Origin: Minisyncoccota bacterium
Lineage (GTDB): Bacteria > Patescibacteriota > Minisyncoccia > Phycocordibacterales > GCA-2401445
Reading direction: 5' to 3'
DNA length: 64,000 bases
Assembly: GCA_040879725.1 (NCBI GenBank)
Contig: JBBDJV010000015.1
Location: forward strand, 32,127-96,126
Under the pieces are notes generated by a model. It was not told the DNA's origin. It saw only the letters and a program-made list of their open reading frames with translations, and did not search any database. The translations under genes and the position numbers were made by a program. Of this stretch, positions 3,601 to 43,101 are shown piece by piece (the first letter of the stretch is position 1; each line of letters begins with the position of its first letter).

Positions 3601-6600
3601 GAGCTGCACCCGCCGGCTGGGAATGTGTATCATGTACTGGAGGGGATCCATTTTATCAAAGATTCATACGAGGAGGTGCTACCTATGGCGGAACGGGTGG
3701 AAGTGCAACTCACACTCATACTGCTTCAGTGTCAGTTGGGGGCCCTTCTGCAACTACCGGACAAACACCAGGAGGTTCGACTGTTTCAGGCTCAGGGCAT
3801 ACTCATACGTTCACTCCAACTGTAAGTTCCGCAAGCAATTTGCCTGAGTATCGTCAGTTGAGAGTATTACGTTCAACCAGCGCGGGAACTCCAGCAACAC
3901 TTCCTGCGGGAGCAATTGTTTTCTTTACCGATACAGTTCCAACTGAGTGGACTCGATACAGCGCGCAAGATGGACGTTTTGTTCGAGGTGAGAGTGGCGT
4001 TGGGACAACAGGAGGTGCAAACACTCACAGTCATACTATTACTGGTACCACCGGCGCGGCAAGTGGGGACACGTACGGCACTCAAAATGGACAGACGAGA
4101 GCGGATGTCGCTCAAGTAAACCACACGCACAGCGTATCTGGTTCAACCGATTCAGTAAGTAATACTCCTCCATACATAGAAACCATTTTAGGGAAAATTG
4201 ACGCAGACGGTTCTCTTCCAATTGGAATGCTCGCAATGTGGGATGAGGATGTTCCTGTAGGTTGGAATCACAAATCTGAATCAGGGGATCCATTTTTTGA
4301 GCGTTTTATTCTCCCTTCAGCTACATATGGAACAATCGGTGGGAATATAACTCATAGTCATGCTAATCAGAATATCGTGAGTGGAGGTCCTGCTCAAACT
4401 ACAACAGCTCGAGCAGGCGGTAATGTTTCTTCATCGGATCACACACACACTATTAGTTTAACAAGCTATTCGTCTCCGAGTCACCTGCCGCCATATATTA
4501 ATGTTGTGATAGCGGAGTTTTTGGGCACAGATCCCGTTTTCACACAAGCTCAATTCAGATGGTATACGAATGCTAATGTCGAAACTCCAACCGACGCATG
4601 GCCACAAGGAAGCACACTTAACTTAAACGAAAATGAACCAATTACTGCTACTTCTACACCGGTATCACCAGATGACGTTGTGCGTCTTCGTATGGCTGTT
4701 GGGGTAGGTAATGCAACATCTACCGCAGGTTCAGTTAACTTTAAATTGCAGTACGGTCAAGGTTCTGTTTGTAGCGCAGTAACAACATGGAGTGATGTAG
4801 GAGAAATAAGCAGTTCAACGCCGTGGATAGGATATGACAATACGAGTGTTCTGGATGGTGTTGAGTTATCTTCAACAACTCTCTCTCTTTCTAATGTGTT
4901 TGGTTCATATGAAGAGGAAAATAACTCAACCACAACACCAAATGATATAAGTGTTGGCGAGTATGTTGAGTATGATTGGGTTATTCAGCACAATAACGCT
5001 ACGAGTGGTGTTCCGTATTGTTTCAGAATGGTAGAAGGTGACGGTACTCAGTTTTTCACTTATACATCGTATCCTAAATTACAAACTAACTCTGCTCCGA
5101 ATACTCCGACTCTCGATCGTTTGTTTGATAATGAAAAAATTGCTTCAACTTCTCCACATTTTTGGTTTGATGCTGAAGATGATGAAGGTGATGCGTTGTA
5201 CTATCAGATACAAGTTGATGAGGATTTTGCCTTCGGATCTGTACTTATAGATAACAATTCTCAATCTCACGGAGATCAGTTTACAAACCTTATAAATCCT
5301 TCTCAAAAGGAGCCATATACTGAAGGAAATACAGTTCAGTTTATTCCAAGTAGCTCACTCTCAAACAATACAACGTATTGGTGGAGGGTTCGTGCATGGG
5401 ATCCTAATGGGTCTGAAGACTATGGAGAGTGGTCTGAACCACAAAGCTTCACAACCGATTCGAATATTGTTGAGTCTACATGGTTTCAGACAACAGACGA
5501 GCAGTTTGATACCAACACACTTAACGGAGTTAGGACGTTGGGAACAGATGCAGTTGAATTGAATGTTGGCTCAAGTACGGGTTCTATGTACTCAACATTT
5601 ATTGATTTTTCAGATGGTACGTATGGAAATATATGGGAAGAATTTTCATTTAATGACGCCGAAACAACTGGATCAATAAGTTATCAGGTTGAATACCAAA
5701 CAGACGAAGGGGCAGAGTTAGTTCCTGATAGTATTCTTCCTGGGAATAGTACAGGATTCGGTACTTCACCCGTAAATCTTTCAGGGGTAGATCCGGAAGT
5801 GTATGACAATCTTCGACTGGTAGCTAACTTTACCAATAGTGGTGGTAGTCCACAATTGCTTGATTGGACACTCAAATGGGGAACAAAAATCGATACTCCG
5901 ACATTACTTCTTCCTTTTGCAAATGAGCGTTTTCCAACCACCACACCAACATTCACATTCACTACTACAGACCAACAAAGTGACGATCTTCAGTATGAAG
6001 TGTCATGGTCAACCGTGTATGATTTCACATCCTCAACTACTCGAAACTCATCATTGCATGCCGGTTTTGCTAATACTGAAGATAGTGGAGACTCTGATCC
6101 ATTTACATCGGGAGATACGATTAGGTTTACAATACAACCTGCTGATGCTCTAACTGCTTCCACTACCTATTGGTGGAGAGTCCGCGCAAAAGACCCAAGT
6201 GGGGGTAATGCATTTTCTGACTGGTCTGAACCAAGAAGTTTTACCCATAATTATTTGGATGTTGTATCAACGTGGTTCCAAACTACCGATGAGCAATTTA
6301 ATACGAACATTCTTTCCGGAACACGAAGTACGGGTAGTGACTCTCTTACTGTCGCAACAACTTCGAACGAAGCTATGATTGTATACGGGGAAGGAGCAGT
6401 AACTACTCCACAGTTTCGAATATGGAACGGTTCGTCATGGTCGAGTGAAAGCAGTGCGCTTAGCGTAGACTCTCAAATAAATTGGGTGGCAGTAAAAGAA
6501 GCCCCTACAAGAGAAGAGTATGTTCTCGGAACACTTGGATTAGATAGTGATGTTAATGTTCAGGTATATAGTGAGGGTATTTGGGATAATCTCCTCGAAG

Positions 6601-9600
6601 TTACTGCTAGTATTAGCAATGCAGATAAACGCGGTTTTGATATTACGTATGAATCAATTTCAGGTGATGCTATGGTTGTAAGTTGTGATGGCGATTCAAA
6701 TCCTACGTACTACACATGGAATGGTTCGTCATGGTCATCACCGGGTACTATAACAACTTCCACAGGAAGTAGCTGTGAGTGGATTCGACTTGCGTCTAAT
6801 CCTGTGTCGGACGAAATTATTATGGTTACTCTGCCGGGTGGAGGAGGTCAATATGAAGCTCAAGTATGGAATGGTTCAGCGTGGGGAAATGCTGTGGTGT
6901 GGGGAGGCATGAGTGAAGCACATGAAGGAATTGGTGTTGCGTATCAACCAAACGGTGCCCTTGCTGTTGTTACTGTAAACAATGATGGTTCAACACCTCC
7001 AAACCGTATGTCATCTCGTACATGGAATGGTTCATTTTGGAGTGGTACTACCGATACAAACGTTGGATACTTTGAACAGGGAACGCTGGTCGCTGATGAT
7101 GGAACAAATAACATGAACCTCTGTTTTGTAAATGACGCTACAACGGTTCAAGGGTTACCGTGGACAGGCACAGCGTGGGGAACGCAAACACAGCTTGATG
7201 CAACCGCCCACGCGAAGAATGATCGCCCGGTTGACTGTGTATACGAAACTACAAGCGGAAGAGATGGAAATGTTTTGACTGCATACAGTGACACAACATC
7301 AGCTCGGTACAGTGTGCTTAGCGGGGGAACCTGGTCTGCTGAAGCAAGTATCAGCACTATCAGTCGTTCCGCAACGGTTCAGCTTGAACGTGTTGGTGAT
7401 GGACTTATTTTGGGAACCTTCTTCGATCATGTAAATGAGCGATACGACTTCTCTTATTGGAATGGTAGTGCATGGTCAACTGCACAAACGCTCGAAAATA
7501 CTCCGTCGGTAAGTTCTGCTCCATTTAAAGAACCGTTTATGATGGCTGCTCGCGGACCGGCAACTAGTGGTACGGTAGCGGTATCTCCGGGTATTGTATT
7601 TTCAGATGGGACCGGTCCGTATTGGGGTGAATTGTCATTTAGTAATACGACTCCTGGAGCAAGTGGGGTGCTTTATCAAGTACAGTACGCAACTGCTACA
7701 ACATATGAGCTTATTCCGGACGTAGACCTTACTGGCAACTCAACAGGCTTTACTACATCACCAGTTGATCTTACCGGTTTGGATATTACTACGTATGATA
7801 CTATTCGAGTCAGAGCGACACTTACCTGTGATGGTTCTGACTGTCCAACTCTAGATGATTGGACGGTGACGTGGGCTGAAGGCGCTACAGTGTCGGGTAC
7901 CATTGCAGAACATGATGAGACAACTGCTGTAACAGAAGGGACGGTAGCTGTTGCGGTAAATGGAGTATTGCAAACAGGTAAAACGGGTGAAATCCAAGGT
8001 GACGGAACATGGAGTATAACCAATGTTACTGCATTTGTTGATGATATTATTACCGTATTTGTAAGTGGCGCAACAAGTGAGAATAAGGCTGTCGCTGTTA
8101 CAAAGTATGATGGGGTGGGAGATATTACAGGCATTGAATTACATGAGCGACATCTTACATTTGGATCAGATGATACCTCGCCTGTTATTACAAACAGCGA
8201 TTTGGGACTTTTCGATATTGCTGTGGGAGGAAGTGATGTGTTCTTTGATGTGGACGCATCGAATAACTTAGTTGCAACTTCAACAGGAGGTGGTTTTGAC
8301 GATGTTGTTGTGTACGTAACTTCTGGAACAACATATAGGCCTGACAGTACATCAAGTGGAAATGTCTCCACTCACGATATTGCTATTTTAGGAACGATAA
8401 TGGCAGACGGAAACACAATTTCACTTTCAGGTTCCTGGAGAAATAGTAGTACTTTTAGTGAGGGTACGAGTCACGTTGTCTTTACCGCTCTAAGTGGTTC
8501 GGAAAGTATAGATTCTACAGGGGCGAGTGCGAGCAATTTTTATCGAGTTACCTTCGGACAAACTTCTGGTACTGCAACATGGTTACTCTCCACACCTCTT
8601 GTGGTAACAAACAACACTGCTGTTAATTACGGAACGTTATCTCCAGGCTCACAAACTCTTTCTTTGGGAGGTAATCTTGCTATTGGTTCAAGTGGTCTGT
8701 TTACTAAAGGTACCGCCACAACAACATTTAACGGAACGGGCAGTAGTGTTTGGTCTGATGCGTCTTCCTTAAAGCAGGATATGGGAATTGTTGTTATTGA
8801 TGGAACAAGTAAAACCGTTACTCTTGGTTCAAATGTTCAAGCAACTGATATTGTTATAGGAGCTAATGATACGTTTGATATAACAACAGGAAACTACAGC
8901 ATAGGTGTAAATGGTTCATGGACTAACAATAATACTTTTCTTTCACGACAGGGAGAGGTAAACTTTACCGGTTCGTCATTTGGAGTTTCTATTTTACCTG
9001 GCTCATCATCTTTTTATAACCTTTCATTTGGTGGAAGCGGCTCGTGGACTTTTGGTTCTACTAATATCACCGTAGTAAATGACTTTAGTATTTCAAATGG
9101 TTTTGTTACGCTTCCGAGCGGAACCACTACCATTAGTGGTTCGTTTCTTGCGACTGCGAGCGGGTCTTTTGCAGGGAATACCGGAACTGTCCTCTTTACC
9201 GGTTCATCTGGATCGGAAAGTATTAGTCAAAATAATTCAAGTTTTTATAATCTTGTACTCAACGGAAGTGGCTCTTGGTCATTTAGTGAGCAAAATGCAA
9301 CCACAACAAACAACGTTCAAATCCTTAGCGGTACGCTAACCGCTCCGTCTGGTGCATTAGCTATTGGAGGTTCATTTACAAATGCTGGAACATTTACTCA
9401 CAATAGTGGCGCACTTCGTTTTTACTCAAGTGGTGATAGTAAGGTAGTACAACCAGGTCTATCTTCCATAAATGACATTATTTTTGATGGATCAGGAGGC
9501 TGGGTTCTTTCTCCATCAGCAAATATAACTGTTTCCGGTGATGTGAGTATTATTTCAGGAACAGCAACATCAACAGCAGAAACACTTTCTGTTGGAGGTT

Positions 9601-12600
9601 CGTGGCTAGTTGGTCCCTCAGGAATATTTAATCACTACGACGGAACTATTGCTTTTAATTCAAGTGATACAGGCGAAACTATTGCTTCAGGAAATTCACC
9701 TTTTGGAACCGTTAGCTTCAATAACTCAAATGGAGGATGGGCTGTCACAGAGAACGCCACATCAAGTTCTGGTTGGAATATTACTGACGTATCTGAATTT
9801 ACCGTTGAGTCAGGTGTGGTTGTGGCTGTTGGTGGTGATTTTAGTAATGATGTCGGAGGTGCGGAAACAACATGGACAGGATCGACTTTGGTTTTAAATT
9901 CCAATACCCCATTCTCAATAAATGATAAATCAACCGGAAGTGACGAGTATGCTTCTATTGTTTTAAATAGTGGCACTAAAGTGAGTATGTGGAATTCGAG
10001 CGCAACGGCGGTTAGTGCTAACAGCGATTCTTATTTATATTCACAAGATCATGCTGGTGTAGATGGAAATCTTTATATTTGGGGTGAGTATGTGCGTTCA
10101 TCAGGTGTGGAGCATTGGAGCCATGCGACTGACTTTGACGGAACCAGTCTTTCTGGTAGTGAACGAGCTGTTTCTGTTTTGTTTGACTCAGGAGCTAGTG
10201 CGGAAATAAATAACTCAACGCTTTCAATTGTTGGCGGAGTGGGAGCAACAACAACAATTAATAATCAAGGAAGTGGAGCATACTCTCTTTCAGTAGTAAA
10301 TAGTACAACCACTGCACAGTATTATGCATTCAGGAACTTAGATAGTAGTGGTTTTGTTTTAACAGGAGAAACGTCTGTTACTTCATTATCAAATGGAGAT
10401 TTTGAATTATCAGCAGATGGAGGTTCACTTGTAACACTTTCTGCTGAAACAATCGATGAGAATCCAACATTACAGATTAGCCGGGTTCGTTTTGCAACCT
10501 CAACAGGAATAACGTCTGGATTTAACGTTACCGCAACAGGAACACCTACTTCGTACTGGTGGTATAGGAATCATTATGGCAATTATGCTGGAGAAGCGTT
10601 TGATAATGATCCGGGAGATAACCCTGGAAATATTCGTTGGGATGACAGCAATCTTTCAATCACTGTTTCGGGAATAGTCTATTATTCTGATCGTGCTACT
10701 ACAATGGGTAGTCCTGTGTGTGATGGAAGCACTAACACTGTTCGTGTAGATGTTCAGGGAGGAACAGGGGGAAGTGCTCCGTGTAATGCAACAACTGGAG
10801 AATTTTCAATCGAAGGGGTGTCATTAAGTGGAGACGGAATAGTAACAACATATCTTGATACAAATGGTGGATCACGCGCGGTGGCGATATCAAAAACTCC
10901 AACCGCAGACATAACTAATCTTGGACTATATGAAAGTTGGCTTACAATTAGGAACGAAGATGTGAATTCGGTATCAATATCTGACCTTGTTGCCTTTGAT
11001 AGCTCGGGTGATTCTGATGTATTCTTCTCTGCAAATGAAGGCTCACCGGATACGTTGGTCTTGGAGGATGGTTTTGGATTATATGTTGAAGAAGGGAAGT
11101 CTTTTTCACCTAATGGAAATATAACACTTGTTTCAGGGAGTACTGATTTCGTTGCGGGAACATTTGAGCTGGGAACAAGTAGCCTTTTGACGTTTAATGA
11201 CGGAGAAGACCATGCAGTTGGCGGAAGCTTTATAGTAGGGACTAACGCAACCGCAACAGTAGCAAGTTCAAGTCTTACCTTTACCGCTACAACTTCCGGA
11301 AAAACCATTACACCTAATGGCTCATCACTCTATGATGTTGCCTTTACTGGTGTTGGTGGCGAATGGGAACTTAGTACCTCGAGTATTACGGGGGACTTTG
11401 TAGTAACCGCGGGAACTGTTGTTGGAACTTCAGATGTTTTGGTAACCAGCGGTTCAATAACCGGAAATGGCGTGCTTGCATTTACTGATGGCGCAGTAAC
11501 ACTTCAGAAAGCAGGAAACTTCGGAGGTTCGGAAAACTGGACATTCGCTAACTTGGTATTTGGTGACGGTACAACAAATGCAACTACAACAAAAATTGGA
11601 GCGAATAATATTCTGGTGGAAAATCAATTAACCATAGACACAAATCATGTTCTTCTTGCAGGAGATGATGAGTGGGAATTAGGAGGAAGTGGTACTCCGT
11701 TTGTAATTTCAGGAGACTTTGACGCGGAAACTTCAACCGTTACCTATAGTGGGACAAGCGCGACAACAGTTACTGCCGAAGAGTATAACGCTCTTACTCT
11801 TGCACCGTCTGGAGCGGGATCTCCAAACTACACTCTTGCCTCAGGGTCCTTTATTCTAAATACATTAGTAGTAGGTGACGGGGTTAATACGGTTTCGGTT
11901 AATGCAAACACCACTGATCCTTTAGTAAATGTAAATGGTGATGTAACAATAAATAGCAACGCAACATACGTATCATCAAATAGCTCATTGCTTTCCGTGG
12001 GGGGAAGTTGGACAAACAATGGTGCCTTTACGCATAGTAATGGAACGGTACTATTTAACTCAAGTGACACGGGAGAAATTGTATCTTCAGGTAATTCAGC
12101 GTTTGGAAATCTTCTATTTAGTAATGTTTCAGGCGGATGGGCTATTTCAGGAAATGCAACAACAAGCGGTAATTTAATTCTCGCATCAAGTACTTCCTTT
12201 ACTCTTTCTCCTGGTAGTACGCTTTCGGTTGGTGGGATGTTTGAAAACCAACTTGATGGAGGAGTAACAACATGGGACGGAACAACATTGGTTCTCGAAG
12301 GTGCGGTAGGATACTCAGTCAATTCAGCGACAAGTACAGGGGATACATACAATACATTAGTTATTGATGAAAATACCGATGTCCGCCTCTGGTCCTCATC
12401 CGCAGGAACCACCACTGTCGCAAGTACCGCATCACTCTACTCACAAGACCACGCAGGAGTAGACGGTGACCTCTACATCTGGGGAGACTATCGCCGAACT
12501 ACCGGTAATGACTACTGGAGCTATGCTACTGACTTTGACGGAACCGCACTTACCGGAGGAAGTGAACGACAAGTAAACGTACGCTTTGCTCCAAATGCTT

Positions 12601-15600
12601 CTACTACAGTAACCGGTGGAAGTTTGCAGATTATCGGAACATCAGATGCTACGACGACTATAGATAGGCAGAGTACGGGGAATTACGGTATTGAGATAGA
12701 AGGTGGTACGTTCACGGCTTCTTACTATAGTTTTGAAAATATGGGTTCTCGCGGACTTGGGTTTAGCGGAACACCGACAGTAACAAATATTTCAGATGGA
12801 GATTTTGAGTTGGGACTCGAAGGACAGACGCTCATAACGGTAGACGCAAGTGTTATTGATGCAAATCCAACTAAAACATTCAGTAGAAATCGTTTTGCTA
12901 CAGCAGGTTCTGTTACGAGTGGAATAAACGTTACTGTGGAGGGAACGTCCGTAAGTTCGTGGAGGTTTAGTGACCACTATGGTGATTTGGACGGTGAAGC
13001 AAATGACAGCGATCCAGGCGGTGATCCAGGATATGTTATTTGGGATGATAGCGCGGGAGATATTACTGTATCTGGTGTTGTGTATCAGAACGATAGAGTT
13101 ACTCCTGCTGGTGGAGCAGTGTGTGATGGAACAACGAATGTCGTTCGGCTTTTGGTGGAGGGAGCGGGTAGCTACTTCGTGCCGTGTGCTTCAGGAACAG
13201 GAGTATACACAATACCAAGTGTAACTTTCTTACCGAGCGATGTCTTCACGGTATTTCTTGATAATGCATCCGAAGATGCTGTAGCGGTAACGTACGGAGC
13301 ACTTACCAGTATTGCAAATATGCACCTTTATACAGATCACGTAATAGTGCGTCACGAAGGAGTAGACCCGATTACCATAAGTGAACTTGCGGTATATGAT
13401 GGAGGTGATGATGCGGATATTCCGTATACAACAACCCTAACTCCCGACACACTTTCTACTGGAGCGGGTACCGCTCTCTATGTATGGCAAGGAAAAACAT
13501 TTACTCCGGGAGGAGATGTGACGGTTACGGGAAATGGTACAACCAATGAGTATGACGGTACGCTGTATGTGTGGCAGAATGCAAATTTTGTTGCCGAAGG
13601 CAGTGAGTATTTCACTATCGGAGGAAGCTTGATTGCGAGCTCGAGCGCGGTTATTACCAGTGCTAGTTCAGATTTTGACTTTACTTCAACCGCTACCGGA
13701 AAAGTGGTACGCACAAACAGCTCGCCACTAGCTTCAGTTACATTCTCAGGTAGTGGAGGCGCGTGGTCCTTCCCCGAAACAACCGTTTCAGTGGAAGATG
13801 ATTTTACCATTACTGCTGGATCGGTAAGTCTTCCTGTGGGCACAACGACAGTTGCCGGATCATTTATAAATAATGGAGGAACCTTCACGCATAATAGTGG
13901 AACAGTGCAGTTAAATGGAACAGAAGTTGGTAATTCAATTCAAGTTGGTGGATCAGACTTCTATAACCTAACAATCGGAGGTACGGGTTCTTGGACATTC
14001 CTTGATACCAATGCAACCACAACAAATCAACTTCGCTTTGAGTATGGCTCAACAACGCTTCCGTCAGGGGTACTTACTGTGGGCGCTACACTTACTTCTG
14101 TAAATGGAACCTTTAATCACAACAACGGAGATGTGAAATTTATTTCTACCAGTTCAGGTAATGTTATTACCCAAAAAGGCTCAGGATTTGGCGGAATAAC
14201 TTTCGATGGTACTGGAGGATCTTGGTCATTTGCACAAAGTGTCGCTACTACTACCAAGGACTTCGCTATTGTAAACGGTTCGGTTGCATTACCGACAGAC
14301 ACGCTTCGGGTCGGAGGTTCGTTTATTAACGAAGGTTCATTCAGTCACAGTACCGGTACGGTGTTAATGAATTCCGCACTTACGGGAGAGGTAATAACTC
14401 CGGGAAGTGATCCATTCCATAACCTAACAATACAAAACAGCGCAGGGGGATGGACGCTTACCGGTTCAGCTACCACAACAAATAACTTTAACCTTTCTAC
14501 CAGCACAAGCTTTACTCTTGTTCCGGGTTCAACCTTGAATGTCGGGGGTTCATTTACAAATACCTCGGGCGGTGCGGGAACTTCGTGGGACGGAACGACG
14601 ATAAACCTTACTGGAGGCAATAGTTATTCAATAAATGGACGATTAAGCTCCGGAGATGAATACAATACTCTGGTAGTATCTACAACAACAAAAGCTCGCC
14701 TCTGGTCCTCATCCGCAGGAACCACCACTGTCGCAAGTACCGCATCACTCTACTCACAAGACCACGCAGGAGTAGACGGTGACCTCTACATCTGGGGAGA
14801 CTATCGCCGAACTACCGGTAATGACTACTGGAGCTATGCTACTGACTTTGACGGAACCGCACTTACCGGAGGAAGTGAACGACAAGTAAACGTACGCTTT
14901 GCTCCAAATGCTTCTACTACAGTAACCGGTGGAAGTTTGCAGATTATCGGAGCATCAGATGCTACGACGACTATAGATAGGCAGAGTACGGGCACGTATG
15001 GTCTTTCTGTGCTCGGAGGAACAGTAAATGTAGATAGATATCAGATAAGAAATATTGATGAATTGGGATTGTATATTTCTGGACAACCTACCGTTACCAG
15101 TCTTTCAAATGGAGATTATGAGCTCGATAAAGAGGGTGGTTCAATGATTACTGTTTCTTCCACAACGATTGATTTCAACCCATCGCTCTTTATTGGTGGT
15201 GCAAAATTTGCAACATCTACTGGAATAACAAGTGGATTCAACGTGACGTTGCTGGGAACACCAATAAATGCGTGGACTTTTACTGGGCATAGCGGAAATT
15301 ACGATGGAGAAGCATATGACAGTGATGGTGGAGATGCATGTGGAAAAATACGATGGAGTGACAGTGTGTGTCTCTTTGTAAGTCAAGAAAGCTATAGATT
15401 TAGAAATGATGACGGAGGGGAAGGGGTCCCTAATGACGAGTGGTACCATTCAGATTGGGATAAACGTATGAGAATTGCGATTACAAACGCTTCCACTTCA
15501 GCGCTCACAAATCAACAAGTAAAAATTGAGTTACCAAAGGCCACTGATATGCAAAGTGATTACGGAGACCTTCGGTTTACCGACAACTCAGGAACAACGA

Positions 15601-17660
15601 CAATTGATTATTGGATTGAAAGTTACACAACAGCAACTTCAACTGTGTGGGTAAAAGTTCCAAATCTCCCAGCAGAAGAAACCACTGGTATATACGTGTA
15701 CTATGACACTGTAGCAACACTCGATACTGATGGGGTAGCCACATCAACATTGATCGTATACGACGGTTTTGAGGATAACAATATAAGTGAGTATTCAGGG
15801 GACACTAGTATGTTTTCTGTATCGACAGGTTTTGATTTTGAGGGAACCTATGGACTTACATCTTCTTCAGGAAATGAAGACCAAAGAACAACAGATGGTA
15901 TTTACCGCACAGGTACAGGAAGTACCGTTTCGCAAGGAGAAACGATACATTTTGCACAATATATTGATACCTCGCTCGGTTTTCAGGATGAACCGTGTAT
16001 GGTGTTTGGTGTGCAAACACCGGGGTCAAATAATGAAAACTATGCAGTGTGTTTGGATGTATTTGGAGATTCTGTTGTTATTTCAAAAGATGTTTCTTCA
16101 AATGATGGTTCAGGAACAATACTGGCAAGCGATACTTCGGTAGGATTTTCAAGTGGGTGGTATGAAGTTGAGATTGACTGGCTCACAAGCGGAGTAATTA
16201 ATGTTGCTGTATACGATGATTCCGGTGCGCTCTTTTCTGAAGTAAGTACCACGGATTCAAGTTATAGTTCCGGAGGGTATGGATTTGGTTTTTGGATTCA
16301 GTACGGAGGATGGGATTATGTAAGTTCTTGGAAATATACTGAAGTTGTGCCGACGTATACGATTGGTATTGAACAAGTGGGTGAAGGTGCAACGTGGAGT
16401 AGTGCCGAAAACAGCCCTCTTGCGGGGCAGTCAGTAGGTGAAGATATGCGACTTCGATTCCTTGTTCAAAACTCAGGTCCGGAAATTACTGATCAAAACT
16501 TTAGATTACAAGTTGCATCAAAGGAGGGGTATGGTAGCTGTTCGTCTGTACCATACGGAAGCTTCAGTGATGTTCCTGTAAGTGGAAGTTGTGGATCCTC
16601 AGTTGCGTGTATGTCTACATCAAGTCAGGTGGTTAATAGTGCTTTAACCACACAACTGCTCTCTGTTCCTGATAGCGTGACTTTTACGCAAGGTCGTTTT
16701 GTTGAAAGTCCTTCAAACCAAACGTCAAACATTGATATCGGAACTAATCTCTATACTGAAGTTGAATATATATTTGATCTGACAAATTACGCCGTAGATT
16801 CCGCATACTGTTTGAGAACGACAGATTCTGGAACACCACTTGATAACTACGCGAATATTGCAGAGGTAAGTTTGATCCATGCCCCGACAATCACAAACTT
16901 TAACCTAAATGATAATCAGAATATTGAACTCTCAGTTGGGGCATCTACAACCATTTATGCGACAGGAACAGTAATTGACCTAAACGGATATGAAGATTTA
17001 GTGTACGCAACATCAAGTATTTATCGAACCGGTGTGGGGGCAACGTGTACTCCTGATGACAATTCATGTTATCAGGTTGCAAGTACGTCTTGTTCATTTG
17101 TAAATTGTTCTGGAAACAGCTGTGACGTGATATGTAGCGCTGACATTGCTTTCTTTGCGGATCCAACCGATGGTGGAGTGTTTGAGGCGGAAGAGTGGGA
17201 AGCTGAAATAACGGTGGTGGACCAAGGTGAGATTAGAGATACTGGTATTACCATGGGTGTTGAAATGGGAACACTTCGAGCACTTACTGTCGAAAATGAA
17301 ATTGATTACGGAACACTCGAAGTGGCAAGTAACACAGGAGATGCCAATGCAACAAGTACGGTAATTAATAAAGGAAATGACACTATTGATGTAAATCTGT
17401 ATGGTACTGACTTGGTGGGAGGTGCTAGTACGATTTCGGTAAATAATCAAAAGTTTGCAACGTCAACATTCTCATATAGTGCTTGTACTATTTGTCCATT
17501 TCTTGATAGTTCTCCTGTTCCTGCAGGTATTGATTTGAGTAAACCGACAACTACGGTGCCCGTAATGACTGAAATTTACTGGGGGTTGAATGTACCAATA
17601 GGTACCGCGGGTGTACCTCACTTTGGACAAACGACATTTGAAGCTACAGGAAGTGAGTAG
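696..17660 (+). CDS. giant (5,654 aa) multidomain secreted/surface protein, likely an adhesin
   Basis: A single uninterrupted ORF, starting at GTG 696 or ATG 711. It has an N-terminal hydrophobic anchor/signal, an acidic S/T-rich linker, an Ig-like module, three tail-collar repeats, FN3-like 'YWWRVRA' modules, a 'WNGSSWS' repeat run, very long Gly/Ser/Thr/Asn beta-helix-like repeats, DUF2341-like and LamG-like modules, and a C-terminal domain shared with the 22397..24229 protein. Confidence 0.85.
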   Translation: MDVFEMRLINLLKKDIWVVGSLLLIVLVVSGNTYLKNVYADPVIEDSVYLLPTKVESVGWNNVSTVGVQEISSDGTLGAFNKSNSAFVIFKNGEYAKEEAVIPVRETGVPKAEKIDVGETKETEGQEKLDNEESIQDFIATTTATTTTDKSVSTSTPVAESLEPENEELEGEGEEEQSTTTDSVENHNVSEEVSEEVDSEETSTSSEEVNLDTQQEINEEENNSAVEEESTDSVENENNASSSAPVTRFLNAIKRAVFSLVPSFVFADEVSTTTETSTPKVSSTTVPVEEVSSTTSVTTTPQIVTSEEEKQATEKEIEEKQVAVPSKPSEDEVIDTEAPTLTVLGNNPAVLAIGSTYNDLGVTVSDNINNNLGFKTSVDGVEVSVVSLDTKSEGVYEITYSVVDQAGNTGTAKRMVYVGIEPEEKIVSEAENETILDTFTCDNSEACTTNVLEVSGFGVGGEVFGEGLIDTAQLRISMGSNIAHSKTNELPLKLEIEYFYNESWFSAGSIVLDEEVSNAINGGYFLYALPFFESWAEFADFKVRIRYDHNKELEGGVYIDSIWIEAFSGEGINKEEFGLTKEEKKRAEIEKGMKKPKLHSVIKGKPAFEIDENPEFEFEYELQRSNISRFFRGLFKDDPDYRVSSVEIKTASGQDIDLPISLRYGGGERWGFSVEKNNESLHPGKYEVSITIHEGSKSFTDSFEFYWGVLTVNTNKSIYSPQETALFSMAALTDNGHTMCDAILRLVVVDPDQSETVVPVEKSGLCDGNNVIDVPDYFGEMQLAGVGEYQVSLERYNEEGGLVIQTNDIFEVRDYVPFDVEREGPTRIYPPAPYVMSISFRANEAFDGVITETVPKGFIIEESEGANVVVKEDVVEISWPVSVRAGERILKTYRFDAPDISPYIYETGPLVFKKEIATTSFQEMSTSSPLCSEGFCEEEITEEVVFQEIRTWKIASDAVGRMLILWDGGAAPAGWECVSCTGGDPFYQRFIRGGATYGGTGGSATHTHTASVSVGGPSATTGQTPGGSTVSGSGHTHTFTPTVSSASNLPEYRQLRVLRSTSAGTPATLPAGAIVFFTDTVPTEWTRYSAQDGRFVRGESGVGTTGGANTHSHTITGTTGAASGDTYGTQNGQTRADVAQVNHTHSVSGSTDSVSNTPPYIETILGKIDADGSLPIGMLAMWDEDVPVGWNHKSESGDPFFERFILPSATYGTIGGNITHSHANQNIVSGGPAQTTTARAGGNVSSSDHTHTISLTSYSSPSHLPPYINVVIAEFLGTDPVFTQAQFRWYTNANVETPTDAWPQGSTLNLNENEPITATSTPVSPDDVVRLRMAVGVGNATSTAGSVNFKLQYGQGSVCSAVTTWSDVGEISSSTPWIGYDNTSVLDGVELSSTTLSLSNVFGSYEEENNSTTTPNDISVGEYVEYDWVIQHNNATSGVPYCFRMVEGDGTQFFTYTSYPKLQTNSAPNTPTLDRLFDNEKIASTSPHFWFDAEDDEGDALYYQIQVDEDFAFGSVLIDNNSQSHGDQFTNLINPSQKEPYTEGNTVQFIPSSSLSNNTTYWWRVRAWDPNGSEDYGEWSEPQSFTTDSNIVESTWFQTTDEQFDTNTLNGVRTLGTDAVELNVGSSTGSMYSTFIDFSDGTYGNIWEEFSFNDAETTGSISYQVEYQTDEGAELVPDSILPGNSTGFGTSPVNLSGVDPEVYDNLRLVANFTNSGGSPQLLDWTLKWGTKIDTPTLLLPFANERFPTTTPTFTFTTTDQQSDDLQYEVSWSTVYDFTSSTTRNSSLHAGFANTEDSGDSDPFTSGDTIRFTIQPADALTASTTYWWRVRAKDPSGGNAFSDWSEPRSFTHNYLDVVSTWFQTTDEQFNTNILSGTRSTGSDSLTVATTSNEAMIVYGEGAVTTPQFRIWNGSSWSSESSALSVDSQINWVAVKEAPTREEYVLGTLGLDSDVNVQVYSEGIWDNLLEVTASISNADKRGFDITYESISGDAMVVSCDGDSNPTYYTWNGSSWSSPGTITTSTGSSCEWIRLASNPVSDEIIMVTLPGGGGQYEAQVWNGSAWGNAVVWGGMSEAHEGIGVAYQPNGALAVVTVNNDGSTPPNRMSSRTWNGSFWSGTTDTNVGYFEQGTLVADDGTNNMNLCFVNDATTVQGLPWTGTAWGTQTQLDATAHAKNDRPVDCVYETTSGRDGNVLTAYSDTTSARYSVLSGGTWSAEASISTISRSATVQLERVGDGLILGTFFDHVNERYDFSYWNGSAWSTAQTLENTPSVSSAPFKEPFMMAARGPATSGTVAVSPGIVFSDGTGPYWGELSFSNTTPGASGVLYQVQYATATTYELIPDVDLTGNSTGFTTSPVDLTGLDITTYDTIRVRATLTCDGSDCPTLDDWTVTWAEGATVSGTIAEHDETTAVTEGTVAVAVNGVLQTGKTGEIQGDGTWSITNVTAFVDDIITVFVSGATSENKAVAVTKYDGVGDITGIELHERHLTFGSDDTSPVITNSDLGLFDIAVGGSDVFFDVDASNNLVATSTGGGFDDVVVYVTSGTTYRPDSTSSGNVSTHDIAILGTIMADGNTISLSGSWRNSSTFSEGTSHVVFTALSGSESIDSTGASASNFYRVTFGQTSGTATWLLSTPLVVTNNTAVNYGTLSPGSQTLSLGGNLAIGSSGLFTKGTATTTFNGTGSSVWSDASSLKQDMGIVVIDGTSKTVTLGSNVQATDIVIGANDTFDITTGNYSIGVNGSWTNNNTFLSRQGEVNFTGSSFGVSILPGSSSFYNLSFGGSGSWTFGSTNITVVNDFSISNGFVTLPSGTTTISGSFLATASGSFAGNTGTVLFTGSSGSESISQNNSSFYNLVLNGSGSWSFSEQNATTTNNVQILSGTLTAPSGALAIGGSFTNAGTFTHNSGALRFYSSGDSKVVQPGLSSINDIIFDGSGGWVLSPSANITVSGDVSIISGTATSTAETLSVGGSWLVGPSGIFNHYDGTIAFNSSDTGETIASGNSPFGTVSFNNSNGGWAVTENATSSSGWNITDVSEFTVESGVVVAVGGDFSNDVGGAETTWTGSTLVLNSNTPFSINDKSTGSDEYASIVLNSGTKVSMWNSSATAVSANSDSYLYSQDHAGVDGNLYIWGEYVRSSGVEHWSHATDFDGTSLSGSERAVSVLFDSGASAEINNSTLSIVGGVGATTTINNQGSGAYSLSVVNSTTTAQYYAFRNLDSSGFVLTGETSVTSLSNGDFELSADGGSLVTLSAETIDENPTLQISRVRFATSTGITSGFNVTATGTPTSYWWYRNHYGNYAGEAFDNDPGDNPGNIRWDDSNLSITVSGIVYYSDRATTMGSPVCDGSTNTVRVDVQGGTGGSAPCNATTGEFSIEGVSLSGDGIVTTYLDTNGGSRAVAISKTPTADITNLGLYESWLTIRNEDVNSVSISDLVAFDSSGDSDVFFSANEGSPDTLVLEDGFGLYVEEGKSFSPNGNITLVSGSTDFVAGTFELGTSSLLTFNDGEDHAVGGSFIVGTNATATVASSSLTFTATTSGKTITPNGSSLYDVAFTGVGGEWELSTSSITGDFVVTAGTVVGTSDVLVTSGSITGNGVLAFTDGAVTLQKAGNFGGSENWTFANLVFGDGTTNATTTKIGANNILVENQLTIDTNHVLLAGDDEWELGGSGTPFVISGDFDAETSTVTYSGTSATTVTAEEYNALTLAPSGAGSPNYTLASGSFILNTLVVGDGVNTVSVNANTTDPLVNVNGDVTINSNATYVSSNSSLLSVGGSWTNNGAFTHSNGTVLFNSSDTGEIVSSGNSAFGNLLFSNVSGGWAISGNATTSGNLILASSTSFTLSPGSTLSVGGMFENQLDGGVTTWDGTTLVLEGAVGYSVNSATSTGDTYNTLVIDENTDVRLWSSSAGTTTVASTASLYSQDHAGVDGDLYIWGDYRRTTGNDYWSYATDFDGTALTGGSERQVNVRFAPNASTTVTGGSLQIIGTSDATTTIDRQSTGNYGIEIEGGTFTASYYSFENMGSRGLGFSGTPTVTNISDGDFELGLEGQTLITVDASVIDANPTKTFSRNRFATAGSVTSGINVTVEGTSVSSWRFSDHYGDLDGEANDSDPGGDPGYVIWDDSAGDITVSGVVYQNDRVTPAGGAVCDGTTNVVRLLVEGAGSYFVPCASGTGVYTIPSVTFLPSDVFTVFLDNASEDAVAVTYGALTSIANMHLYTDHVIVRHEGVDPITISELAVYDGGDDADIPYTTTLTPDTLSTGAGTALYVWQGKTFTPGGDVTVTGNGTTNEYDGTLYVWQNANFVAEGSEYFTIGGSLIASSSAVITSASSDFDFTSTATGKVVRTNSSPLASVTFSGSGGAWSFPETTVSVEDDFTITAGSVSLPVGTTTVAGSFINNGGTFTHNSGTVQLNGTEVGNSIQVGGSDFYNLTIGGTGSWTFLDTNATTTNQLRFEYGSTTLPSGVLTVGATLTSVNGTFNHNNGDVKFISTSSGNVITQKGSGFGGITFDGTGGSWSFAQSVATTTKDFAIVNGSVALPTDTLRVGGSFINEGSFSHSTGTVLMNSALTGEVITPGSDPFHNLTIQNSAGGWTLTGSATTTNNFNLSTSTSFTLVPGSTLNVGGSFTNTSGGAGTSWDGTTINLTGGNSYSINGRLSSGDEYNTLVVSTTTKARLWSSSAGTTTVASTASLYSQDHAGVDGDLYIWGDYRRTTGNDYWSYATDFDGTALTGGSERQVNVRFAPNASTTVTGGSLQIIGASDATTTIDRQSTGTYGLSVLGGTVNVDRYQIRNIDELGLYISGQPTVTSLSNGDYELDKEGGSMITVSSTTIDFNPSLFIGGAKFATSTGITSGFNVTLLGTPINAWTFTGHSGNYDGEAYDSDGGDACGKIRWSDSVCLFVSQESYRFRNDDGGEGVPNDEWYHSDWDKRMRIAITNASTSALTNQQVKIELPKATDMQSDYGDLRFTDNSGTTTIDYWIESYTTATSTVWVKVPNLPAEETTGIYVYYDTVATLDTDGVATSTLIVYDGFEDNNISEYSGDTSMFSVSTGFDFEGTYGLTSSSGNEDQRTTDGIYRTGTGSTVSQGETIHFAQYIDTSLGFQDEPCMVFGVQTPGSNNENYAVCLDVFGDSVVISKDVSSNDGSGTILASDTSVGFSSGWYEVEIDWLTSGVINVAVYDDSGALFSEVSTTDSSYSSGGYGFGFWIQYGGWDYVSSWKYTEVVPTYTIGIEQVGEGATWSSAENSPLAGQSVGEDMRLRFLVQNSGPEITDQNFRLQVASKEGYGSCSSVPYGSFSDVPVSGSCGSSVACMSTSSQVVNSALTTQLLSVPDSVTFTQGRFVESPSNQTSNIDIGTNLYTEVEYIFDLTNYAVDSAYCLRTTDSGTPLDNYANIAEVSLIHAPTITNFNLNDNQNIELSVGASTTIYATGTVIDLNGYEDLVYATSSIYRTGVGATCTPDDNSCYQVASTSCSFVNCSGNSCDVICSADIAFFADPTDGGVFEAEEWEAEITVVDQGEIRDTGITMGVEMGTLRALTVENEIDYGTLEVASNTGDANATSTVINKGNDTIDVNLYGTDLVGGASTISVNNQKFATSTFSYSACTICPFLDSSPVPAGIDLSKPTTTVPVMTEIYWGLNVPIGTAGVPHFGQTTFEATGSE
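3574..4520 (+). other. three tandem phage tail-collar (MdpB-like, Pfam Collar-type) repeats inside the giant protein
   Basis: The recurring motif chain is 'G.L..W.G..P.GW..C.G' ... 'RF.RG...G..GG...HTH(T)' ... 'LPPY/TPPYI..I'. The three instances end NLPEYRQLRVL, TPPYIETILGKI and HLPPYINVVIAEF. Confidence 0.6.
12384..12680. repeat. intragenic near-identical direct repeat, copy 1 (about 297 bp)
   Basis: The nucleotide string 'cgcctctggtcctcatccgcaggaacc...gcagattatcgga' is identical to 14697..14993 except for one mismatch. Confidence 0.9.
14697..14993. repeat. intragenic near-identical direct repeat, copy 2
   Basis: This copy lies 2,313 bp downstream of copy 1 and encodes the same ~99-aa block (RLWSSSAGTTTVASTASLYSQDHAGVDGDLYIWGDYRRTTGNDYWSYATDFDGTALTGGSERQVNVRF...). 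A diverged third copy is at ~9981..10280. Confidence 0.9.
15440..15710 (+). other. DUF2341-like module in the giant protein
   Basis: 'DWDKRMRIAITNAS...QQVKIELPKA...DYGDLRFTDNSGTTTIDYWIESY...TVWVKVPNL...GIYVYYDT' follows the DUF2341 pattern W..R..I.I......L..FP.L...F.D..G..L..E.E...........WVK.P.L....I.MYYGN. A LamG/ConA-like region follows. Confidence 0.45.
16870..17657 (+). other. C-terminal ~260-aa domain of the giant protein, homologous to the C-terminal half of the 22397..24229 protein
   Basis: Aligned blocks: YRTGVGATCTPDDNSCY ~ YRSGVTAASC..DPNNCY; FFADPTDGGVFEAEEWEAEITVVDQ ~ FLADATDAGSFYAAEDWRATVTATDD; NQKFATSTFSY ~ NQKFGTTTTGY; EIYWGLNVPIGTAG ~ DIYWGIGIPGTITFAG. Confidence 0.7.
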
Positions 17661-17803
17661 CTATAGTAGAGGAGGTATTGACGATTACAGTCAGTGGTAT
17701 ACACTAGATATATTATGAATAGAGTAGGAAACATATTCTTTTTCTTTGCCTTTAGCCAGCACTCTGGTTGAGGTTTTGCTTGTTTCTGGAAATATTCTTG
17801 AAA

Positions 17804-17836
17804 AAAGCCAGCTCTCAACCAGAGCTGGCTTTTTAG
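17804..17836 (+). terminator. rho-independent terminator after the giant gene
   Basis: A perfect 9-bp stem 'gccagctct'/'agagctggc' with loop 'caacc', followed by TTTTT. Confidence 0.7.
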
Positions 17837-18096
17837 TTCTTTACAACAAAATACAAATTATGCACGCTATGACTACGCAAAGAAAACACAAACGAACACC
17901 GGGTGCTACATTCACGCTCAAAACTGATTTTGTTATTTCCTTCCACGAAGGTCGGAAAAAAATCACACGCACGTATTCCACCGGAACAAAAGGGAAGTTG
18001 GTAGCAACATCTTTTTCCCAAGGGTCTTGGTTCTTTGTTCTCATGATGCCCGACTGAAACGTCATTAACGTCAATGAGTGTAAGCTCATATAAACC

Positions 18097-18131
18097 ACAC
18101 CCCACTTAGACACGTTCAAGTGGGGTTTTTA
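18097..18131 (+). terminator. second rho-independent terminator
   Basis: Stem 'ccccactt'/'aagtgggg' with loop 'agacacgttc', followed by TTTTT. Confidence 0.65.
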
Positions 18132-18249
18132 ATTAATGGCAAACAATACGTGGTTTTAAAATTTTCTTTATTCCTATAGAAATTTTTATCTACAACAGAG
18201 ACACAACTCTCACTACTCGCATGATATACTTTTAACGAGACTTGCCTCT

Positions 18250-19755
18250 ATGCATTTTTTACGTACCAACATTTTAGTTAAAATAACACTCTATACCTTT
18301 TTGATTGTGGGAGTAGGTGTATTTTCTTTCCATAAAGGAAGTTTGGCGCAGGTAAATAATCGTACTGCGCCTGTCATAACTGACATTTCTATCGCTGAAG
18401 TAAAAGAATCAGAGGTCCGTATTTTATGGGAAACCGATAAAGAGTCTGACTCAATGGTAAACTTCGGACTCGATAAGCGATATGGAATTATTCGTCTTCC
18501 TGGAACAAGTCGAACCGACCATGAGTTAACTATTGGAGAGTTGAAACCTTCAACCACATACCATTTTCGAGTTGTTTCTTCTGATGCATCCGGAAACCAA
18601 AGCATTTCTGGTGACTTTCAGTTTACTACGAAGGGAATAGTAGAAGTAGAAGATATTGAGCGGGTTGAATCTCGCGAACAGCGCGCGGTTGTTGAACAAG
18701 CGGTAGCGCAAATTGATGAAATTACCGATGTTGAAGCTCTTGATATTGTCATTCAAAAAATACAACAAGTTGCGTCAGGTATTACCGATGATTTAACTAT
18801 TATCGGAACACCAGATGTTGAACCTCGTACAACAACAGCAGTTGTGCGATGGGTAACAAACAGACCCTCTGATTCCACTGCATCATTTGTTTCCGAAGAT
18901 GACTACAATCCACAAAGTAGCAATCCATACACCTCTTCTCAGAGTAGCAATGATGAAAATGTTACGGACCACCAAGTTACTATTATTGGTCTTGAACCAT
19001 TTACTGTTTATCGTTTGCAAGTGTCATCACGTGATCAGTTTGGTATCGTGGGAAAAAGTAAGGAGATAACCTTTACTACAAAATCAGTATTGCCGAATAT
19101 TACCAATATTGATTTAGAGAAAATAGAAGAAACCTCAGCTACTATTGTGTGGAATACAACTGTCCCTGCTAAATCTCTTATTGATTATGAAAACTTAGAT
19201 ACTGGTGAAATTAAGTCACTCGGTAGTCCAAGTTTGGCGACAAGTCACTCGCTCCGTCTTTCAGACCTTACGCTTGGAACACAGTACCGCGCGATAATTA
19301 CCGCAGAAAATGCGGGAGGAGAAAGAGTAAGTAGTGATCCTATTACCTTCGTTACTATTATAGATGAAGAACCTCCAGTGATTTCAAAAGTAACAAACGA
19401 ATCAACGCTTTTCCCCGGTTCGGAGGCTAGAATTCAGACCATTATTAGCTGGGAAACCGATGAGCCTTCACTGTGTAATTTCTTCTATCACCAAGGGTTG
19501 GTTCCGGGAGTAGTTCCTGAACAAACATTGCCAAGAAAGGACGATAACTATAAACAGGAACATGTACAGGTTGTTGTAGACTTCGCCCCTTCAACCGTAT
19601 ACAAGTTTTGGGTAATGTGTGAGGATGCATCCGAAAATGAATCTCGTTCGGAAGACTTTGTATTGTTTACTCCCGAGAAGGAAAAAAATATTATTGATAT
19701 AATTCTTGAGAACTTCGAAGGAACGTTCGGTTGGGTTCAGGATATCGGAGCTTAA
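18250..19755 (+). CDS. membrane-anchored protein with four FN3-like repeats (likely extracytoplasmic partner of the downstream ABC transporter)
   Basis: An N-terminal TM (ITLYTFLIVGVGVFSF) is followed by four ~95-aa repeats, each ending in '...Y.FRV.S.D..GN.S.S..F.FTT'-like strands. The stop TAA overlaps the next gene's start in TAATATG. Confidence 0.7.
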   Translation: MHFLRTNILVKITLYTFLIVGVGVFSFHKGSLAQVNNRTAPVITDISIAEVKESEVRILWETDKESDSMVNFGLDKRYGIIRLPGTSRTDHELTIGELKPSTTYHFRVVSSDASGNQSISGDFQFTTKGIVEVEDIERVESREQRAVVEQAVAQIDEITDVEALDIVIQKIQQVASGITDDLTIIGTPDVEPRTTTAVVRWVTNRPSDSTASFVSEDDYNPQSSNPYTSSQSSNDENVTDHQVTIIGLEPFTVYRLQVSSRDQFGIVGKSKEITFTTKSVLPNITNIDLEKIEETSATIVWNTTVPAKSLIDYENLDTGEIKSLGSPSLATSHSLRLSDLTLGTQYRAIITAENAGGERVSSDPITFVTIIDEEPPVISKVTNESTLFPGSEARIQTIISWETDEPSLCNFFYHQGLVPGVVPEQTLPRKDDNYKQEHVQVVVDFAPSTVYKFWVMCEDASENESRSEDFVLFTPEKEKNIIDIILENFEGTFGWVQDIGA

Positions 19756-19756
19756 T

Positions 19757-21082
19757 ATGGCAAAAGCACAAATTTTCGCAAAAAACCTGGAGGTTACATA
19801 TAACGAAGGAAAGTCCAATGAATTCAAAGCATCTCGTGATTTGAACGTGGAAATTTTTGCTGGAGAATACATTATTCTTTTCGGTCCGTCTGGATGCGGA
19901 AAGTCAACACTACTCTACTCAATCCTTGGAGCACTTCCACCTTCTCGGGGCCAAATGCTCGTAAAGGGAGACGATATATATAAGTATGAACAGGATCAGT
20001 TGGTTAATTTCCAAAGAAATGTTATCGGGATTATGTATCAGGCTTTTAACCTTATTCCGTCTATCAGCGTGCTCGATAATGTAGTACTTCCGCAAATATT
20101 TGCATCAGTAGATAAAGCACGGAGAGATAACCGGGGGAGAGATTTGCTTAGGCGCTTTGGTGTGGATCATATTGCAAACAAACTTCCAACAAACCTATCA
20201 GGAGGACAGATGCAACGTGTGGCTGTAGCTCGTTCACTGGTAAATGACCCAGAGATTCTCTTAGCTGATGAGCCGGTAGGTAACTTGGACAGTATTTCCG
20301 CGGAGCAGGTTATGAACACTCTTGAGCAGATTAATTTGAATGATAAAAAAACTGTTATTTTGGTTACTCACGATGCGAAATATTTACCCTATGCGCACCG
20401 CGTGTACTATTTGCGTGATGGTAAAAATGAACGAGAGGTGCCAAATCCAGAAAAAAAGCAAATTAAAAAAGTAGAGGCTGGTAAAACTATAACCACTGAA
20501 ATTGAAAAGCTGGCTCGTATGTATCCGTATTCTTCTATTGAAGAACTTCGAGTAAAAAGCCTGGTTAATTATCTTATCGAAGATATTGACTTTGATCAGC
20601 TTGTTATTCTTGAAAAAGCGGTAGAAGATGTGATCAAGGGGAGAATGGGTGATAATCGATTTCTCGATATTTTAAATAAGCGCATAGGAGAGGGTGGGGT
20701 TGGTTTTAGTAAAGCTCGTTCAGAGATGATAACAAAAAAGATTTTCACTATAATGGAAGAGTCTCGAGATATAACCCGCTTTAGGTCAACTATTGATATG
20801 GATTTAGGTTATTACTACCAGTCAAGATTTGTTGAACGACTCAAAAAGTATACCCTCAGTGAAGTTAAAATAAAGTTAAGCAAAGAACAACATGAGCGAT
20901 TAGATGACTTTATCTCAGATAGACTTACAGGACTAACTCGTCGGCATGAATTTCTACTTGCGCTTGATAAGCCTGTGAAAGAGGGTGGTTTAGGTCTGAA
21001 CAAAAAGGCTTCTGCTCTTATTTCACGACATATTGAAAAACTACTTGCACAGGGAGTAAGCTATATAATCGCAAAACACTAA
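19757..21082 (+). CDS. ABC transporter ATP-binding protein (MacB/LolD/FtsE class) with an atypical ~200-aa C-terminal extension
   Basis: Walker A GPSGCGKST, the signature LSGGQMQRVAVAR, Walker B ILLADEP and H-loop VTHD are all present. The extension is two tandem ~90-aa repeats, each containing an 'EGG(V/L)G(F/L).K' core. I moved the start from the ORF-track ATG at 19706 to the ATG at 19757, which sits in TAATATG overlapping the upstream stop. Confidence 0.85.
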   Translation: MAKAQIFAKNLEVTYNEGKSNEFKASRDLNVEIFAGEYIILFGPSGCGKSTLLYSILGALPPSRGQMLVKGDDIYKYEQDQLVNFQRNVIGIMYQAFNLIPSISVLDNVVLPQIFASVDKARRDNRGRDLLRRFGVDHIANKLPTNLSGGQMQRVAVARSLVNDPEILLADEPVGNLDSISAEQVMNTLEQINLNDKKTVILVTHDAKYLPYAHRVYYLRDGKNEREVPNPEKKQIKKVEAGKTITTEIEKLARMYPYSSIEELRVKSLVNYLIEDIDFDQLVILEKAVEDVIKGRMGDNRFLDILNKRIGEGGVGFSKARSEMITKKIFTIMEESRDITRFRSTIDMDLGYYYQSRFVERLKKYTLSEVKIKLSKEQHERLDDFISDRLTGLTRRHEFLLALDKPVKEGGLGLNKKASALISRHIEKLLAQGVSYIIAKH

Positions 21083-21083
21083 T

Positions 21084-43050: not shown

Positions 43051-43079
43051 TCCACAAAACTCTCCAAAAGTGCTAGAAT
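43051..43079 (+). promoter_or_regulatory. candidate promoter with extended -10 for ileS
   Basis: 'tccaca', a 17-nt spacer, then 'TGcTAGAAT'. This places the transcription start after the ORF-track ATG at 43078. Confidence 0.4.
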
Positions 43080-43101
43080 GACTACATTCGGGCACTTTTT
43101 T

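Follow-up and report, generated by a model that had tools for sequence, protein, structure and literature searches.

A 296-nt near-identical tract in two ancient modules of a giant Patescibacteria protein, probably the product of recent intragenic gene conversion

Gene conversion and concerted evolution among the repeats of surface proteins are well-known processes. Ectopic recombination has been described among the FLO adhesin genes of yeast (PMC3512402), and antigen variation in bacteria has been reviewed (PMC4534519). Repeats can also dominate very large proteins, as in the 1.5-MDa adhesin of Marinomonas primoryensis, whose region II is reported to consist of ~120 identical 104-aa repeats (PMC4083281). 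Within Patescibacteria, large (> 4000 aa) proteins with FhaB and/or DUF2341 have been described, for which a role in adhesion or host interaction is presumed (PMC11809585). Here, we analyze a giant open reading frame (ORF) in a 64,000-nt stretch of the genome of a Minisyncoccota bacterium (assembly GCA_040879725.1, contig JBBDJV010000015.1, positions 32,127 to 96,126; hereafter, “the window”). The ORF (696..17660, + strand), the only giant one in the window, encodes 5654 amino acids (aa) and contains three diverged super-repeats, each ending in a core module that we refer to as A, B, or C. Modules B and C share a 296-nt block that differs at a single base, and we conclude that this block is most likely a recent intragenic (non-allelic) gene-conversion tract.

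As they are outlined in the accounts cited, the yeast and bacterial systems have several features in common with this locus: non-reciprocal copying between units, a mosaic of identity, and repeats that are substrates for unequal crossover. They differ in that the units here are ~800 aa long, number only three, are ancient and orthologous across a bacterial class, and have an essentially fixed copy number (43 of 44 loci); conversion here affects only ~100-160 codons, within the best-conserved portion of the module. The Marinomonas adhesin is likewise a giant, repeat-built, probably extracellular fibre in which DNA identity clouds both assembly and copy number; in the description cited, however, its repeats are many and identical as a whole, whereas the units here show a protein identity of ~45-55% beyond the tract, have only the 296-nt patch in common, and are conserved in number. 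The Patescibacteria proteins of PMC11809585 match in phylum, size class, and DUF2341, but are reported to have no full-length homologues and a variable domain order, while the family described here retains both its complete architecture and its synteny in dozens of species. No FhaB-named Pfam family was found in Pfam scans of the giant protein. In the literature, we found the general note on DUF2341/FhaB proteins (PMC11809585) and no description of the three-module family or of its conversion island; the process itself is familiar, and the protein family is uncharacterised.

The core modules, each ~390 aa, were delimited by segment-wise self-BLASTP and three-way alignment: module A at 9513..10685 (+ strand, aa 2940-3330), module B at 11913..13085 (+, aa 3740-4130), and module C at 14232..15395 (+, aa 4513-4900). 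The near-identical tract lies at 12384..12679 in module B (+, aa 3897-3995) and at 14697..14992 in module C (+, aa 4668-4766), with an in-frame offset of 2313 nt, or 771 codons; module A lies outside it. The two copies agree at 295 of 296 positions, in exact runs of 255 and 40 nt, and their sole difference (A at 12639, G at 14952) is non-synonymous, with ACA (Thr3982) in module B and GCA (Ala4753) in module C. The earlier note on this DNA had described a 297-bp block with one mismatch. The near-identity holds, but the base at 12680/14993 differs as well, so that 297 nt would contain two mismatches.

The limits of the tract are sharp. In the codon alignment, modules B and C reach a nucleotide identity of 1.00 in the tract versus 0.36-0.61 in the flanks; the latter confirms the divergence that had been noted there and is no better than the identity of A-B or A-C, which ranges over 44-68%. 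At third codon positions, B-C identity rises from 0.31 upstream to 1.00 in the tract and falls back to 0.38 downstream; protein-level selection therefore cannot explain the block. As a null comparison, we examined 600 module pairs drawn from different genomes and different positions, among which the longest exact match was 29 nt, so a 255-nt run is far beyond chance. The mosaic of tract and flank, the identity at synonymous sites, and the null maximum make a recent conversion between diverged units, as proposed earlier, the best explanation.

The tract spans the most conserved motif of the family (LYSQDHAGVDG...W..ATDFDG...R) and holds most of the residues that are invariant in the alignment (S, L, G, W, DFDG, R, V, G, and T). 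In the predicted structure of the module, it corresponds to residues ~158-256, a stretch of high confidence. JGI metagenomes gave 0 matches to an exact 50-mer taken from the tract, and a metagenome protein scan with the B-to-C segment gave no match above 51% identity, the best extended match being at 37%.

The modules themselves are much older than this identity. A scan of one genome per species yielded 241 module-encoding stretches, of which we retained 77 loci. For 147 of 150 modules, the nearest non-self neighbour occupied the same position (A, B, or C), which puts the origin of the paralogues before that of the species. Modules B and C can each be matched to positional orthologues in > 40 species, and the C-terminal part of module C is nearest to the C-position modules of other genomes. 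The segments between the modules follow the same order, with the pre-A segment of the window preceding module A in 58 of 61 loci, its A-B segment in the orthologous slot in 60 of 61, and its B-C segment in the B-C slot in 59 of 61. Judged from these comparisons, the triplication is ancient and fixed at three copies across Patescibacteria. The tract, in turn, is specific to its lineage: the orthologous stretch in the nearest relative (locus L001) is only 79% identical to it, and other genomes carry tracts of their own.

Self-comparison of the loci revealed these other tracts. Modules B and C are 100% identical over 473 nt in L002 and over 467 nt in L005, modules A and B are 100% identical over 447 nt in L022, and modules A and C are 96.6% identical over 435 nt in L043. 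Two older tracts at 86-87%, of 452 nt (A-C) and 338 nt (A-B), are also present in L005. All are in register and fall inside residues ~3776-4035 in module-B numbering, overlapping the tract of the window (3897-3995). The L002 and L005 loci are ~66% identical to each other overall and only ~70-73% identical within the tract, so homogenisation must have occurred separately in each genome. Two further loci end in perfect inter-module repeats at the end of their contig, L061 with 55 nt (10142..10196 and 12446..12500) and L012 with 99 nt (1531..1629 and 3943..4041). These are typical k-mer lengths, which indicates that the repeats mark breaks of the de Bruijn graph at longer identical tracts. In the protein database, the family is present only as fragments on short contigs, as fits contig breaks at inter-module repeats.

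Across the family, orthologues exceed paralogues in identity by 0.090 in the C-terminal third of the module versus 0.022 in the N-terminal 200 aa. After removal of the loci with obvious tracts, the excess identity of paralogues from the same genome was 0.041 ± 0.009 in the N-terminal part versus 0.029 ± 0.006 in the C-terminal part, a weak effect that is consistent with older conversion in the N-terminal part.

We also observed two repeats of a different kind. In L070, the first and third modules share a 1.7-kb segment (6760..8470 and 12660..14367) at 90% identity, which apparently takes in extra sequence within the modules, and the module spacing of this locus is altered; the segment may reflect a larger or older conversion, or a duplication. 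A 379-nt repeat in L074 (1394..1772 and 6563..6941; 97%) lies outside the core modules, in a different part of the orthologous gene, and conversion-like homogenisation may thus not be limited to the beta-helix modules.

How might such tracts arise? Homologous-recombination functions are encoded within the window, namely recA (59192..60232, − strand; Pfam RecA, E 5e-136), which is context and not part of the repeat, RecO (46585..47172), and SSB (57352..57816). Either module B or module C would have served as the template for homologous-recombination repair of the other, with 99 codons overwritten in register; the repair would be RecA-dependent and non-reciprocal, presumably along a RecA/RecFOR pathway. 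The tract resembles B-class (0.60) and C-class (0.60) orthologues to the same degree and so favours neither direction of transfer. The conserved N-terminal half of the modules would form a conversion-prone island, in which each conversion restores identity and so enables the next event, while the position-specific flanks escape. We infer this self-sustaining behaviour from general knowledge of concerted evolution, and the 86-87% tracts of L005 look like such an island ageing. The identity left by a conversion could also be a substrate for in-register unequal crossover or for collapse by an assembler, either of which would drop one 771-aa unit.

Several points weigh against gene conversion. The limits are sharp, and flanks at ~55% are too dissimilar for RecA-dependent initiation, so that a higher similarity in the past must be assumed; strand invasion would not succeed in flanks that have diverged so far, and an island that had been kept similar earlier best explains the sharp limits. 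The identity of the tract comes from a single assembly, and the only other contig found for the source organism (L078), retrieved by an exact-protein look-up with a neighbouring gene, is 3.4 kb long and ends before it reaches the giant gene. The organism is present in sequencing run SRR27977663. Evidence for older conversion across the family is weak, and part of it may stem from shared composition. Finally, the G+C content of the tract (0.514 versus a gene mean of 0.429) ranks 1st among 169 windows along the gene and its G+C content at third codon positions (GC3; 0.42 versus 0.298) ranks 2nd, which could hint at a foreign donor.

Among the rival explanations, an assembly artefact fares best, although we regard it as improbable. 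A single repeat consensus would have been threaded or polished into both sites, or a wrong path taken through a repeat node. The block, at ~300 nt, has the classic size of a short-read repeat node, L061 and L012 do end in exact inter-module repeats, and L001 may be a collapse. De Bruijn assemblers, however, do not make loci that are ~55% identical into identical ones, and one mismatch is retained inside the tract. The canonical modules, spacing, and orthologous flanks argue that the path taken through the repeat is correct, and the same phenomenon occurs in at least three unrelated assemblies. The earlier note had named an artificially duplicated segment as the result that would overturn its reading; as far as the comparative data go, the three-unit layout is canonical and ancestral and the inter-module segments are orthologous, so the window assembly is not duplicated.

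Somewhat less probable still is import from a relative of higher G+C, with a foreign segment recombined into one module and then copied, or entering both. The base composition given above favours it, as does the lower value of copy A over the same stretch (G+C 0.433, GC3 0.27). Against this, a neighbouring window lying clear of the tract (14259..14554) reaches a GC3 of 0.41 as well, the best external match is the L001 orthologue at 79%, with no near-identical donor among the 77 loci, and an intragenic conversion step would still be required. Nor is the enrichment general: it is inconsistent across L002, L005, L022, and L043 and lacking in L002 and L043. We considered G+C-biased conversion as a general trait as well and rejected it on the same comparison, suggestive as the composition is in the window.

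We give very little weight to the idea that selection has kept both copies identical on account of an element at the DNA or RNA level, be it an internal promoter, an RNA structure, or an antisense gene. The tract does span the best-conserved portion of the module, and its first 32 nt are overlapped by an antisense ORF of 195 aa (11828..12415, − strand), but this overlap is minimal. At only 79% identity to L001, no element has been kept across species; copy A lacks the identity, and the tracts of L002, L005, and L022 differ in sequence and partly in limits. Two other minus-strand ORFs lie inside the giant gene (7676..8371 and 10754..11308); the three range over 184-231 aa and are probably spurious.

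Patescibacteria carry retroelement-based diversification systems. Programmed diversification, in which a diversity-generating retroelement or cassette-type antigenic variation copies between modules, thus deserves mention, at odds as long as those of the constrained element. It would agree with the single A/G mismatch between the copies, and with the published speculation on recombination-driven variation in large Patescibacteria proteins (PMC11809585). Both copies, though, are in-frame parts of one ORF, and with only three templates, conversion homogenises instead of diversifying; one mismatch is too few to judge a pattern specific to adenines. Our scan of 30 neighbouring ORFs of ≥ 150 aa, a subset of the ORFs of the window, revealed no reverse transcriptase, and on this basis the retroelement was rejected. 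A recent duplication of the whole unit followed by rapid divergence outside the tract, for which the in-frame 771-codon period would speak, has next to no chance of being correct, refuted as it is by positional orthologues of B and C in > 40 species and by flanks saturated at synonymous sites.

Alongside conversion, the earlier note had suggested that the repeats allow copy-number variation. To count modules in the relatives, we took the end of the WNGS.WS-repeat region as the upstream anchor and, as the downstream one, the beginning of the DUF2341 domain (15558..15785, + strand; Pfam PF10102, E 1e-16), which directly follows the third module. Of the 44 loci that span both anchors, 43 have exactly three modules, L001 with two being the exception, and the anchored span is mostly 7.43-7.55 kb, in species whose DNA is only ~65% identical. 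Almost all loci with enough flank have three modules at spacings of ~2400 and ~2310 nt, like the window. Routine copy-number variation is therefore not supported: unlike the units of a copy-number-variable tandem repeat, those found here number three in all but one of the 44 loci and are not near-identical over their full length. A minority of the anchored loci carry ~0.9-2.3 kb of extra sequence, and the length of the three-module stalk seems to be under constraint.

The exception, L001 (CAYTAR010000002.1, study SRP319275), is ~72% identical to the window in DNA, has the same downstream gene order, and is colinear with the window apart from having two modules. Its second module changes affinity along its length: upstream, it is closer to B (0.5-0.8 identity versus 0.3-0.5 to C), within the tract region it is equally close to both, and downstream it is closer to C (0.64-0.88 versus 0.42-0.56 to B). 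The B-to-C inter-module segment has no orthologue in L001. An in-register crossover inside a tract of B-C identity would produce exactly this state. Given how strongly the three-module layout is conserved elsewhere, we lean slightly toward a collapse in the L001 assembly over a real deletion in the lineage. The suspicion that the region is a likely place for collapse or unequal recombination is supported by L001, exactly one unit shorter and with its junction (L001 ~10,480-10,780) inside the tract region, and by L061 and L012, which break at the repeats. A bolder proposal is that the tract core is a maintained recombination hinge, which would switch the fibre between three-module and two-module lengths by unequal crossover and of which L001 would be a real, fixed example. 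We think this unlikely; if true, the hinge would be a mechanism of length variation for the host-contact apparatus of episymbiotic Patescibacteria.

The larger units around the core modules are less regular than three ~2.3-kb super-repeats starting at 9960, as first described. There are three, running from aa ~2394 to 4895, but the first is ~940 aa long and begins upstream of that position. Unit 1 (7875..10685, +, aa 2394-3330) opens with a short domain (aa ~2394-2500) that recurs at the start of every unit, continues with beta-helix coils, and ends in module A; in segment-wise self-BLASTP, aa 2384-2593 are similar to 3368-3473 and 4107-4305. Unit 2 (10686..13085, +, aa 3331-4130; self-BLASTP and alignment) ends in module B, and unit 3 (13086..15380, +, aa 4131-4895) ends in module C, directly followed by the DUF2341 region. 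The LYSQDHAGVDG motif occurs at residues 3114, 3914, and 4685, so that the periods are 800 and 771 aa. The order of end motifs said to be common to the units is roughly correct, except that unit 3 lacks the final VCDG.TN.VR and that several motif positions vary (for instance, HWS in A and HSG..YDGEA in C).

The assignment of this region to a beta-helix agrees with fold prediction. The module (module B in particular) is predicted to be a right-handed parallel beta-helix of the pectate-lyase-like type, with three-stranded stacked coils and structural matches to AlgG C5-epimerase (4nk8), phage tailspikes, and the adhesins EtpA, Fap2, Hap, and pertactin. The resemblance is at the level of the fold only, with sequence identities of 6-17%. 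The repeat region has zero Pfam matches even at E ≤ 5, including the curated beta-helix families (Beta_helix, Pectate_lyase, NosD, and similar), and a profile of the module matched no solved structure in the PDB by sequence.

The giant protein as a whole starts with an N-terminal hydrophobic anchor or signal, followed by an acidic S/T-rich linker, immunoglobulin (Ig)-like domains, WNGS.WS repeats, the three beta-helix super-repeats, DUF2341, and C-terminal domains. Scanned in pieces, it matches the Pfam families Bact_surface_Ig-like (once), Ig_Rha78A_N (twice), and DUF2341; a PF10102 domain within a Patescibacteria protein of > 4000 aa places it among the DUF2341 giant proteins. Its homologues are found exclusively in Patescibacteria metagenome-assembled genomes, labelled Paceibacterota, Parcubacteria, Minisyncoccia, Kaiser-, Adler-, and Lloydbacteria. 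The protein is probably a surface or extracellular fibre. Two of its other repeat regions are without a Pfam match: three ~105-aa repeats with GG..THTH motifs (~3576..4565, aa 960-1290), and about seven WNGS.WS units of beta-propeller-like appearance (~6345..7535, aa 1884-2280).

The window has a G+C content of about 42%, and the neighbours of the giant gene include aminoacyl-tRNA synthetases, NusG, thymidylate synthase, FtsK, RecA, RecO, and SSB, as well as cohesin/dockerin proteins and a MacB-like ABC/FtsX pair. Directly after the giant gene (17660..22292) lie genes for an fn3/purple-acid-phosphatase-N-like protein, an ABC ATPase, and a MacB-like FtsX permease. Of the 52 loci whose sequence extends far enough downstream, 44-47 (FtsX 37) conserve this linkage. 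It suggests that the genes act as a unit, perhaps in export or mechanotransmission. A few kb downstream, a dockerin-bearing and a cohesin-bearing protein (25283..26416 and 27539..29272, both +) may be a surface-assembly pair. Farther away, a class I aminoacyl-tRNA synthetase of 1168 aa (43078..46584, +; tRNA-synt_1, Anticodon_1, DUF5915) carries an unusual insertion, a His_Phos_1 domain (aa 511-672, E 1e-33) between the catalytic match (aa 27-504) and the anticodon-binding domain.

For those who work with such genomes, the tract marks a site where short-read assemblies break or collapse, and published lengths and module counts of these proteins need checking (as in L001, L061, and L012). The analysis also draws attention to a conserved ~5,600-aa Paceibacteria-type surface protein that varies little in length, contains three beta-helix modules, and has kept its linkage to a MacB-like ABC transporter. 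If gene conversion is, as we think probable, the origin of the tract, the locus offers a clean natural case of concerted evolution limited to an island inside position-specific paralogous modules that are conserved class-wide, in a phylum in which recombination has been little studied.

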